Shown here: positions 3,001 to 6,000 of the stretch, piece by piece
Numbering within the stretch: position 1 is the stretch's first letter
Layout of the letters: each line of letters starts with the position of its first letter
Source of the DNA: a virus
Lineage: Duplodnaviria; Heunggongvirae; Uroviricota; Caudoviricetes
Length of the DNA stretch: 23,198 nucleotides
IMG/VR virus record: IMGVR_UViG_648276650_000002
Coordinates: 1 to 23,198 of that record
Reading direction: 5' to 3' (one strand)
Made by a program: the position numbers

Positions 3001-6000
3001 ATTACGTTGTTTTTCACGACGTTCAAACTCCGAATCCATCCACATTGAGACCTGAGCCGACAAGTCAAGGCAGAGGCCAGACAGGGAAATTATTTGCTCG
3101 ATATCCATATCAATAATATTGGAGTTGATTAACTCCATTAATTGATAAAGGTTATCTGCTGTATTTTTTGCGGTTTCTAGAGAACTGTCTCTACTGAGCA
3201 TATTCAGACTCCGTAAGCTTTACGCATGAAAAGGTCAGATATATGGCGGTACTCGTCGCCATAGACCATAAAGAAAAGACATGCTGTTTTGTATGCCGCT
3301 TTATCGATTAACATTTACTTACCCATTTAAAAGTTGGTTAACGTGGTTGAGTAAATCGCTGTTGCATTCCCGCTATTTTTTTCATCAGGCCTGCATGTAG
3401 TAGTGGGTGAATCTCATCACATGTGGGCTTCCAGTCCTTAGCCTGTTGCATCTTGGCTGTGTGCCAGGCTAAGTGGGCTTCCTGTGTGGTGTTGAAAAGC
3501 CCAAGGTGTGAAATCTTTCCGTTTACGTTGATTCGTGCCCGAAACTTAGCGGACTGTTTATGCCAGATAACACCCTGTGGGTATTTCCCTCGTAAACGGG
3601 CGCGATCACCTGTAAATAAGTTAAGTGCTGGGGGAACAAATACGCAGTATTCAGGACCATATATCTTGTTACCATGGTGTAGCAGGTCCTTATCTAGCAC
3701 ATATCCATCGCGATAGTTTTCTTTCCAGAACGCCAGAAAGTTTGAGAATCGCAGCCACTCATCGGCAACAGTACATCCGGCGTAACTGTGCTCTAACTGT
3801 TCTGTGTGCGGTTTGTAGCAGCGAGATAACATGCCGCTCCAACGACGGTGAGCGCTGTGGTGGCACATTATTCCGTCGATGATAATAGTGCTGGGGAATT
3901 CTACGTCATAATGACCAACACCATACTCCAGGCTTTTTAAATGCCTACGCCGCGAAACTTTTGATTCAAGAAGACTATCTATTTCAGATTGGTTCATTTC
4001 AATCTCCTCTGAAATTTGGTTGCACGTATCCCCACCAGGGATGGTGTGATTTAAACTACCTATTAATTAATTTAATTTTATTTCGATGCTTTTCAGTAAT
4101 TCATGTACCTTAATGGTATTATCGAAAATAAGTGATGCCATCAGGCAATCAGCGTCATCACTGTCTTTTCCTGAAAAATATGATTCGTTATATACGTGAG
4201 CCAGTTCCCTGAGTTTTGCAGCGCTGACTGTGGCATAAAAAATATCATCGGCAATATCATCTCTATTCCCGATGGGGGGGTTAACTGTCTTTGCAGTATT
4301 TGCTAACTCTTCGATGTATGCGTAAGCTGTTTCACGGGTTTTATCGAAAGAGCGAATGAGGCAGGCTAAGCCGCAATCAGTTTCCTCGTTCATTTCTTCG
4401 GTGTTTCTATAAATCATTTCCAGAAGAGTATTGCCTTCGGAAATCTGAGCGACGATATCATGAAGCATGTCTAATGGAGTTTTCATTTATTCATTCTCCG
4501 GCCAATCATAACCAAGTTCATGGTTTAGAACAGAAAGATTATCCCTTAACTGATTGATACAAATTTTAATGAGTGCCGCTGGTTTATATGCAACATCTGG
4601 ATCTGATTCTGCGTACTCAAGCGCATTGATTACACGATCAATATCCATCGCAATTTTGTGGACAGTTCCGTTCTCGGAAAGCATTTTCTCTACATTCATT
4701 TCATAGGCTCCGTTGTCTGCTGATGAAGTGAATTTAGCAAAATGGTAAAAGCCATGCAAATGATAAATGCTAAATTATTTACTTTTTCTTTTATGTATTT
4801 GATAAATAATATAATTATTTATTATTATTCTTCGGTGGGCATAAAAAAACCCACCATCAGGTCGGGTGGGGGGGGGTAAAGATGGGGGTTACAGGGCGGG
4901 CATTTCATCATTGTCAACATAACGCGTATGCTTAACAATAGCTGAAACAAAATGCATTTTCTCGATGCTATCAGGACTTAAGGTGATGGGCCTGTGATCA
5001 CTGTTTACACTTGAGAATTGATAATCGCCATCGCGAGTTTTACTCATGATTTTTATCATGTTATGCCCATCTTTTGTTCGCACAAAAACCTCATCACCTG
5101 TATGAACTTGGGTGTTTGGCTCTATGACGACATATTCTCCAGACTGTATGCGTGGCCACATGCTGTCTCCCTTCACTTTCAGCCCATAGGCATCCCTATC
5201 CGCGCTGTATATTTGTAGCCATCCAGCGTGGATCTCTAGCATATCGATCATTCCGTCAATCCCAAGAATCGCTTCCCCTACAACTGGTACAGCTCCCGGA
5301 CGGACTGATCCGACATACTCCAACTCGCTTTTAATACTGCCAGGAGCATTGTGTGGACTATCCAGCCACCCAAACGGACGATCCAAGGCCTGTTCAATCT
5401 TTCTGGCCATTTTGTCCCCTATGTTTCGATGGCTATTGCCCCCAAGCAACTGGCTCAACTGGGCAGGGCTTATCCCGCACAATTCTGCGAAAGCTGCTTT
5501 TGTCGTATGTCTGTCGCGCTTCAGGAACTCAACAATGAGCTGCTCAAGGTTTGATTTGCGTATGCTTTTTATGTCCATGTCAAAATAATCTCATTATTTA
5601 GCAATGTGGTAAATACACAAACTGCTAAATGATTATTGCATTTAATTTAGCAAAAAGCTAAAGTTGATTCATTGCAACAGGAGACCGTAATGAACAACCA
5701 ATTACTTGCTTGGCGTAAGTGCTCAACAAAAGAGCAGTGGGCAGATCTTGCTAAAAAATCAGGCACATCTCCGGGATACCTGAATCTCATTGCTTATGGT
5801 CATCGCAATGCTTCCCCCAGACTGGCATTGGCGATCGAGAGCGCATCAAAGTCATTCGTGAATAAGCCAGTTATTACAAAAGAACAGTTGGTTTTCAAGA
5901 GCGGTTCTGAGGTGTGATATGTCGCACTCGATCACTACCGAAAACCAAGTTAAGCCATTGGATATCGATTATCGCGATCCGCGCGGTGTGATTGTGCATG

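Follow-up and report, generated by a model that had tools for sequence, protein, structure and literature searches.

Predicted CI-controlled early-left genes for two small acidic hairpin proteins in a lambda-like Escherichia coli prophage

In phage lambda, the repressor gene cI, whose product combines a helix-turn-helix (HTH) domain with an S24 domain, lies divergent from cro, and one family of operators serves both the leftward promoter (pL) and the rightward promoter (pR). The operators overlap the core of the promoter, and the leftward operon leads by way of small accessory genes to xis and int. The place next to pL is held by N and, further along, by cIII, and several short early proteins of pL operons, namely lambda Kil, CIII, and Ral as well as Rac Lar, bind host proteins (FtsZ, FtsH, and EcoKI). 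Directly downstream of cI on the same strand are rexA and rexB, which are co-transcribed with cI in the lysogen, RexB being a membrane protein. Here we examine a pair of small genes and their upstream region (positions 4067-4840) in a 23,198-nucleotide viral sequence, IMG/VR record IMGVR_UViG_648276650_000002, the whole of which we call the window. An initial annotation had described the pair as a two-gene cassette at the position of either rexAB or the first pL genes. Our reading is that the interval holds the left operator and promoter (OL/pL) and the first two early-left genes, named A70 and B139 here, which would be repressed by CI and would be independent modules encoding early protein binders; for this statement taken whole, our confidence is only slightly better than even, and its parts differ in strength. 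The regulatory architecture is that of a standard lambdoid OL/pL, and the proteins are uncharacterized.

Both genes are real. A70 (70 amino acids; 4487-4699, minus strand) ends in a TAA that directly abuts the ATG of B139 (139 amino acids; 4067-4486, minus strand), giving the junction TAAATG, and RefSeq annotates the same two coding sequences in E. coli MS 115-1. The window is a lambda-like, Hendrixvirinae-like prophage; the prophage in the MS 115-1 chromosome (L001) is 99.5% identical to it over the region tested, and a near-identical prophage is present in two of 5,426 complete E. coli genomes. Both proteins are acidic, with an isoelectric point (pI) of 4.56 and a net charge of -7 for A70 and a pI of 4.47 and a net charge of -13 for B139. 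Their genes are also more AT-rich than the backbone, at 38-39% GC (0.380 for A70 and 0.393 for B139, with third-codon-position values of 0.32 and 0.38) compared with 49.9% (0.499) for the whole window. In these points, as in all its checkable details, the earlier description was correct. The start methionine is common to all homologues, and the longer N termini that other gene callers propose lack conservation. Homologues form 79 clusters for B139 and 39-64 for A70, which is a tight family without fusions; all come from Enterobacteriaceae (Enterobacter, Citrobacter, Salmonella, Escherichia, Klebsiella, and Kluyvera), and all are annotated as hypothetical. Pairwise ratios of nonsynonymous to synonymous substitution against diverged relatives, for which synonymous sites are near saturation, range from 0.08 to 0.24, and both proteins are therefore under purifying selection. 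A 73% identical B139 homologue is found in a phage named "Elizabethkingia phage EKP1" (L059, OM284015), whose host is recorded as Flavobacteriia; the immunity region of this phage is identical to that of the enterobacterial contig L015, and its host assignment looks doubtful.

The gene upstream of the pair, cI (4889-5578, minus strand; 229 amino acids), has an N-terminal HTH domain (HTH_3, PF01381) and a C-terminal autocleavage domain (Peptidase_S24, PF00717) and belongs to phrog_4, transcriptional repressor. It is divergent from a small cro-like HTH gene (5690-5917, plus strand; HTH_3; phrog_35; "transcriptional regulator" in RefSeq), as in a lambdoid immunity region. Directly after cI lies a terminator-like hairpin, CCCACC-N9-GGTGGG followed by seven T residues (4843-4870 in plus-strand coordinates, minus strand), which corresponds to the inverted repeats I8/I9, so that the pair does stand, as first described, downstream of a CI-type repressor and its terminator. 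A clean GC hairpin with a T-run is found directly 3' of cI in every relative.

Beyond the terminator is a very AT-rich spacer (4776-4842, minus strand) with equivalent A/T-rich stretches in relatives; its composition makes a UP-element-like function possible. The spacer leads into a putative pL on the minus strand, roughly 100 nt on from the terminator, with a -35 hexamer, TTGCAT, at 4754-4759 and a -10 hexamer, TAAATT, at 4731-4736. The latter is preceded by TGc, as in an extended -10, and is conserved in the related locus L038. Comparable -35/17/-10 arrangements are present in L003, L015, L033, and L040. A 17-bp operator, which we call OL1 (TTTACCATTTTGCTAAA in the minus-strand reading; 4733-4749), overlaps the spacer of this promoter and its -10 element, and an isolated operator half-site, TGCTAAATT (4768-4776), forms a perfect 9-nt inverted repeat with AATTTAGCA (4731-4739). 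The half-site is kept in L038 despite diverged flanks.

The same elements recur between cI and cro. A motif scan, inverted repeats, and the sequence itself delimit a right operator region at 5597-5662, with operators at 5597-5613 and 5646-5662 and a half-site at 5623-5630; the two 17-bp palindromic sites in this intergenic region read TTTAGCAATGTGGTAAA and TTTAGCAAAAAGCTAAA. The putative pR, TTGCAT (5636-5641) and TAAAGT (5659-5664), shares the -35 hexamer and the 17-nt spacing of pL as well as its operator-to-promoter geometry. With the operator in brackets, pL reads TTGCAT-GGCT[TTTACCATTTTGC-TAAA]TT on the minus strand and pR reads TTGCAT-TTAA[TTTAGCAAAAAGC-TAAA]GT, and in both the operator begins at spacer position 5. 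The pattern TTTASC-N5-GSTAAA, with at most one mismatch, has exactly three matches in the 23,198 bp (4733-4749, 5597-5613, and 5646-5662) compared with 0.13 expected, and none of 100 shuffles reached three; with three mismatches allowed, only chance-level matches were obtained. The half-sites seen between the repressor and cro are thus also present upstream of A70, as had been proposed.

We then compared operators across immunity types, using a set of 53 viral contigs, three genomes, three cultured phages, and further contigs with homologues. An S24 CI-type gene lies upstream of the B139 homologue on the same strand, with zero to two small genes between them, at 53 of 59 loci, and two of the six exceptions are truncated contigs. 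In all 12 of the other immunity types, the stretch from the terminator to the first gene shares words of 9-16 nt with its own cI-cro region. These words include CACACAATTTGTGATT in L003, ATCAAGTTTAACTTGAT in L005 and L061, where it is present twice, ATGTTGGATATCCTAC in L016, AAAATGAACAT and ATGTTCATTTT in L033, AAAGTATCAAAAC in L004, and AATAGCAAT in phage Fraca. When the 13 stretches were set against the 13 cI-cro regions, cognate pairs had a longest common word of 11.5 nt on average and non-cognate pairs one of 7.6 nt (Mann-Whitney p = 2e-8). The few non-cognate words of greater length connect phages whose operators are visibly related. Because these operator sequences co-vary with those of the right operator across immunity types, as a left operator predicts, we take the site at 4733-4749 to be a true OL. 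Direct control by the repressor is very likely, since the promoter of the two genes carries the repressor's own operator, and on this sequence evidence we regard A70 and B139 as CI-repressed pL genes with high confidence.

The alternative placement, at the position of rexAB, did not hold, because the cI terminator intervenes and the only recognizable promoter is overlapped by an operator. The pair does resemble rexA-rexB in being two same-strand genes directly downstream of cI, and its AT-rich composition is typical of morons, so that a rexAB-like exclusion or moron cassette expressed in the lysogen deserves consideration. Against it, a terminator separates cI from the genes here and in all relatives, the promoter is predicted to be CI-repressed, the proteins appear soluble with no membrane segment, and neither shows sequence similarity to RexA, RexB, or SieB. 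Exclusion in the lysogen is disfavored because the genes would be repressed there, and we consider such a cassette very unlikely.

Some details of the control region do not sit easily with a textbook OL/pL. Lambda OL has three full operators, compared with one full operator and one half-site at pL here. The -35 hexamer agrees with the consensus at three of six positions, and a scan with consensus promoter and terminator models missed both pL and the cI terminator, with its 9-nt loop, while returning no more matches than expected from shuffles. The scan's failure at pL is explained by the -35 element, which fits the consensus at those three positions only, and the promoter assignment is therefore a reading by eye, supported by the parallel with pR. 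For the terminator, the minimum-energy fold favors an alternative hairpin overlapping CCCACC-N9-GGTGGG, so the window's own copy is not decisive by itself. The practical value of the assignment is that it supplies an operator, a promoter, and a predicted transcription start near 4724 for an unstudied group of Hendrixvirinae-like, Chi-rich prophages that lack a Rec module.

The leader that follows (4700-4726, minus strand), defined by alignment with relatives, contains a Shine-Dalgarno sequence, GGAG (4708-4711), and at about 30 nt is unstructured (no stable fold, z = +0.89). A slightly longer stretch, TCATCAGCAGACAACGGAGCCTATGAA (4696-4726), is conserved in six of the 13 immunity types, before unrelated first genes. 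Within it, the real start codon is overlapped by the stop of a mini-ORF of two codons, ATG-AAA-TGA, which reads ATG-AGA-TGA in some relatives. The conserved leader may serve these phages in common as a translation-initiation region, or it may be a recombination junction. Between 3900 and 5800, an Rfam scan gave a single, chance-level snoRNA match.

In contrast to lambda, which has an N protein and a nut site, the locus lacks an N-type antitermination system at this position, in agreement with the earlier statement that no N-like antiterminator is present. No protein with an arginine-rich motif was found as first pL gene (A70 has only six lysine and arginine residues, and both products are acidic), no boxA-like site near pL rose above chance, and the leader is unstructured as noted. 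The only arginine-rich small open reading frame (ORF) in the operon is a ParE-like one at 2437-2658. Where lambda has rexAB after cI, there is a terminator here, and the first genes encode acidic hairpin proteins unrelated to those of lambda.

The proposal that A70 and B139 form one two-gene unit was not borne out, as the two assort independently across loci. Only the lineage of the window itself and a few more (L002, L014, L038, and L040) have an A70 homologue beside B139, and the B139 family occurs without A70 at most related loci. Elsewhere the slot between pL and B139 is filled by zero to two genes for proteins of 58-71 amino acids from five other families; in one further slot family, two or three HTH domains follow a hairpin. 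In total, six unrelated acidic families of 58-71 amino acids occupy the slot. Slot proteins of all families have a pI of 4.1-5.1, and each of their genes overlaps the next start by ATGA. In some relatives (L005 and L061) the slot genes are absent altogether. In prophages of Salmonella and Enterobacter, the A70 homologue invariably comes first, starting about 197 nt from the CI stop codon, and it is combined with four different CI types; in L062-L067, A70 is present without B139 and other small proteins follow. Profile-profile comparison among the slot families, A70, and both halves of B139 gave no solid relationship, the best result being family c4 against the N-terminal module of B139 (probability 30%, E = 6e-4), and no credible relationship was found between A70 and B139. 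From these patterns we think it probable, with good confidence, that A70 and B139 are independent modules that happen to lie side by side here. The first products of the lytic program would thus come from unannotated families that are conserved under purifying selection and shuffled among heteroimmune phages as single-hairpin modules.

This independent assortment argues against both a toxin-antitoxin pair and an immunity-specific anti-repressor. The sizes of the two genes (70 and 139 amino acids), their order, and the abutting stop and start resemble type II toxin-antitoxin operons, in which a small upstream antitoxin would be translationally coupled to a larger downstream toxin or abortive-infection protein. 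Both products are acidic, though, and B139 is made of two separable hairpins without a toxin-like fold or profile, while the toxin-antitoxin-like element of this operon lies elsewhere, at the ParE-like ORF; we judge the pair extremely unlikely to be such a system. Two other genes were seen near pL in relatives: in L065-L067 (3993-4379) a 128-amino-acid protein consisting of an S24 peptidase domain only is encoded at the start of the pL operon, and in L069/L070 (728-1885) a 385-amino-acid HSDR_N-like protein is encoded between a CI-like gene and a hairpin-HTH gene.

AlphaFold (AF2) models built with family alignments suggest that A70 and B139 are soluble, all-helical proteins, in addition to being acidic. 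A70 is predicted to be a single helical hairpin (helices 12-32 and 40-62) with a predicted local distance difference test (pLDDT) score of 78.5. B139 is predicted to comprise two hairpins: an N-terminal, phrog_6882-like module (residues 1-67; 4286-4486, minus strand; helices 4-28 and 34-67, pLDDT about 90) and a C-terminal module (residues 75-139; 4067-4264 with the stop codon, minus strand; helices 75-105 and 112-138), which carries a conserved ELAHVYNExYF...D...D motif. The overall pLDDT of the B139 model is about 78 with low confidence in the proline-rich linker, and at a predicted template modeling score of 0.42 the relative packing of the halves is undefined. Neither protein has a transmembrane or hydrophobic segment (maximum KD19 = 0.78). 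A HEPN-like Rx4-6H motif around His97 of B139 was rejected, the arginine being replaced by glutamate in half of the family.

Neither protein could be connected to a family of known function. Profile searches of A70 and B139 against Pfam, NCBIfam, and PADLOC gave no credible match, the sole PADLOC match being Lit at a negligible E = 0.019, and searches against PDB sequence profiles gave nothing below E = 0.26. In PHROGs, B139 matches only families of unknown function (phrog_27579, and phrog_6882 for the N-terminal half), and A70 matches none. Foldseek comparison of the AF2 models with the PDB for both proteins and with BFVD for B139 returned generic helical bundles only (E >= 0.79, with best E values of 0.85 and 2.7). 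Nor did these profile and structure searches match either protein to Nin proteins or to common recombination proteins. Searched exhaustively with a profile, 1.84 billion representative proteins yielded only 69 relatives of B139, a small family with no annotated member. A megablast search of the phage collection found no match, and tblastn found B139 in five phages only, all as hypothetical proteins, and A70 in none. We also found no mention of either protein in literature on the protein accessions, the PHROG identifiers, the MS 115-1 prophage, or phage accessory and anti-defense genes.

In relatives, the C-terminal module of B139 may stand by itself or follow an unrelated N-terminal hairpin. 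The N-terminal module is found on its own, before or behind other hairpins, or fused to XRE/CI-type HTH domains, with one or two such domains in P0042, P0139, P0142, P0143, P0165, P0169, and P0173. The fusion genes, too, come first after an S24 CI gene, and a Rac-like prophage is among the examples. They bear on the main rival explanation, in which A70 and B139 regulate the lysis-lysogeny decision or early transcription, for example as a cIII-like stabilizer, an anti-repressor, or an HTH-partner or oligomerization module. Fusion to HTH domains in at least seven relatives, in the first position after S24 CI, fits such a role, as does the pL-proximal position itself, which matches the placement of N and cIII in lambda; there is also no obvious cII-like gene to the right of cro and no obvious cII/cIII system. 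On the other hand, neither A70 nor B139 has a DNA-binding domain, A70 and other slot families pair with several unrelated CI types, unlike an immunity-specific anti-repressor, and the slot genes are wholly absent in L005 and L061. We regard a regulatory role as rather unlikely.

The acidity of the two proteins raises a different idea, namely that they are DNA mimics of the Ocr/ArdA type, acidic helical dimers that block type I restriction enzymes or similar DNA-binding defenses. This is a specific form of the initial annotation's suggestion that small acidic proteins at such a position are often anti-restriction or exclusion factors. Both are acidic, helical, and small and would be the first proteins made after de-repression, and the restriction-alleviation gene Lar (PF14354) is present in the same operon of the relative L067, so this type of operon does host anti-restriction functions. 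Ocr and ArdA carry a net charge of roughly -25 to -30 per monomer. The net charges of A70 and B139 are far below these values, no ArdA, Ocr, KlcA, Ral, or Lar profile was matched at E < 1 (Pfam) or E < 0.1 (NCBIfam), and there was no fold match, leaving DNA mimicry improbable.

Lambda Gam, a helical protein of about 138 amino acids encoded in the pL operon, invites another comparison, since B139 is of similar size, is likewise predicted to be helical, is acidic, and holds a comparable operon position. A Gam-like inhibitor of RecBCD would nevertheless be out of keeping with the rest of the prophage. No Gam profile and no solved Gam structure was matched, and no exo/bet/gam or erf genes were found in the left operon, which sets it apart from that of lambda and leaves the window without a Rec module. 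The Chi sequence (GCTGGTGG) occurs six times in the window (at 2167, 8258, 9448, 9585, 13994, and 18310; five on the plus strand) against 0.77 expected. For lambdoid phages without a Rec module, a reliance on RecBCD instead of its inhibition has been proposed, and the window shows the pattern of such RecBCD-using phages (PMC12315714). The chance that B139 is a Gam-like protein seems to us very slim indeed.

What remains as our preferred function is that A70 and B139 are early host-takeover or counter-defense binders, an assignment made by analogy and held tentatively, at somewhat less than even confidence. In the lysogen, CI dimers would occupy the operator at 4733-4749 and silence both genes. 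Upon induction or infection, A70 and B139 would be the first leftward products, A70 being translated from the short open leader and translation of B139 being reached through the abutting stop and start. As members of a pool of small hairpin modules that assort independently in the slot next to pL of heteroimmune relatives, they may act as stoichiometric binders of host or competitor proteins early in lytic growth. An enzymatic role, membrane exclusion, or antitermination is unlikely for either.

Comparisons with known early and accessory genes are partial. Like Kil, CIII, Ral, and Lar, A70 and B139 are short and would be made early from pL; they differ in being acidic and longer than Kil or CIII and in giving no profile match to those proteins. 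Phage accessory and anti-defense loci are known for a conserved promoter beside which small early genes are rapidly replaced. The slot described here resembles, as far as general knowledge of such loci goes, the anti-CRISPR operons with Aca and the AcrIIA1-type HTH fusions, in that small, unrelated, rapidly exchanged genes follow a conserved strong early promoter and that the module is sometimes fused to an HTH domain in relatives. It differs in being controlled by the phage's own CI, with no dedicated Aca, and in having no match to a known anti-CRISPR or anti-defense family.

Several considerations pull against the binder assignment. The content of aspartate and glutamate is about 19%, a moderate charge well short of that of classical DNA mimics. 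In Pfam, NCBIfam, PADLOC, and the PDB there was no homology to anti-restriction, anti-CRISPR, Gam, Kil, CIII, or Ral families, and profile, sequence, and fold searches together gave no link of either protein to a known anti-restriction, exclusion, or defense family. The fusions of the N-terminal module to HTH domains suggest a regulatory role as much as an inhibitory one, and the function is assigned from context. Early counter-defense is no more than a reasonable guess. If the proteins are inhibitors of host defenses or host machinery, the combination of a terminator, an operator-covered promoter, and small acidic genes would mark a recognizable hunting ground for more of them.

One further feature of B139 is a poly-C tract, C7 on the coding strand (G7 on the plus strand; 4273-4279), in the proline-rich linker between its two modules. 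Among 14 sequences of the window's lineage, in which 14 of 845 aligned columns differ, the tract is the only internal indel and exists in six states, and two further lineages show the same behavior. Across all loci it measures 6-14 nt, putting about 24 of 59 copies out of frame. Such copies would encode the N-terminal module alone (72-76 amino acids) or the module with a frameshifted tail (114-128 amino acids), while the C-terminal reading frame downstream of the tract stays intact. Many database entries of 74-77 and 113-116 amino acids are such out-of-frame forms, and the out-of-frame C9 state recurs in five independent assemblies (L021-L025). The run of C persists in lineages with saturated synonymous sites, and CCC is the rarest proline codon of E. 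coli.

Judged from these alleles, the tract looks like a hypermutable simple-sequence site. Its length varies among near-identical alleles and toggles the frame, as in homopolymer contingency loci, where a homopolymer within a gene shifts by single bases and switches the downstream frame. Those loci are mainly bacterial surface or restriction genes (in Neisseria, Haemophilus, and Campylobacter), unlike the repressed early gene of an enterobacterial prophage considered here, in which the comparison of alleles hints at possible switching. The tract may be a neutral hotspot, the prophage gene being silent, or else a phase switch or a transcriptional-slippage site; less probably, given the recurrence of C9 in five independent assemblies, it is an assembly error. 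A more ambitious interpretation is that the pL slot is an anti-defense island of interchangeable helical-hairpin inhibitors, with the poly-C tract serving as a contingency switch or slippage site; we hold this as speculation that is probably wrong. If it were true, the tract would give a population either the N-terminal module alone or the two-module protein, hedging between hosts where the C-terminal module helps and hosts where it triggers an abortive response. If the tract does switch, an early gene of a temperate phage would offer a rare example of simple-sequence phase variation.

The rest of the left arm, on the minus strand, runs from cI, A70, and B139 through an HNH/AP2-like gene and several small ORFs to an excisionase and an integrase. 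The HNH/AP2-like gene (3338-3997, minus strand; phrog_953, E = 6e-80, with a weak AP2 match in Pfam) sits between B139 and the next conserved small gene in this lineage only, and the left operon of L067 has a 61% identical copy at another place. Its appearance is that of a mobile insertion of the homing-endonuclease type. Further along, a third small acidic protein (2998-3201, minus strand; 67 amino acids, pI 4.27, 39% GC) belongs to phrog_8959 and is weakly related to phrog_1478, a family that also includes one of the slot families of relatives. This weak relationship suggests that the operon holds more hairpin-type modules than A70 and B139. The ParE-like ORF mentioned above (2437-2658, minus strand) encodes an arginine-rich protein of 73 amino acids with a pI of 11.7 and a ParE-like toxin domain (PF24732, E = 1.4e-20); the ORF upstream (2655-3026, minus strand; phrog_1737) overlaps it by 4 nt. 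The two are conserved in relatives and may form a toxin-antitoxin pair within the early-left operon.

To the right of cro lie an O-like replication gene, a primase-helicase gene, and a gene for a Q-like antiterminator. Iteron-like direct repeats with a 23-nt spacing (6422-6556, plus strand) lie within the O-like gene, where they encode a repeated ENQHAGMGKTN peptide, and are probably the replication origin. Downstream of the Q-like gene is a cluster of four tRNAs (11351-11659, plus strand), for Met, Thr, and Gly and, in second place, one with an abnormal anticodon loop, left unassigned by ARAGORN. The MS 115-1 chromosome carries another integrase gene, intA, immediately beyond that of the prophage itself (L001, 810-3586), which suggests that elements have integrated in tandem at this site.

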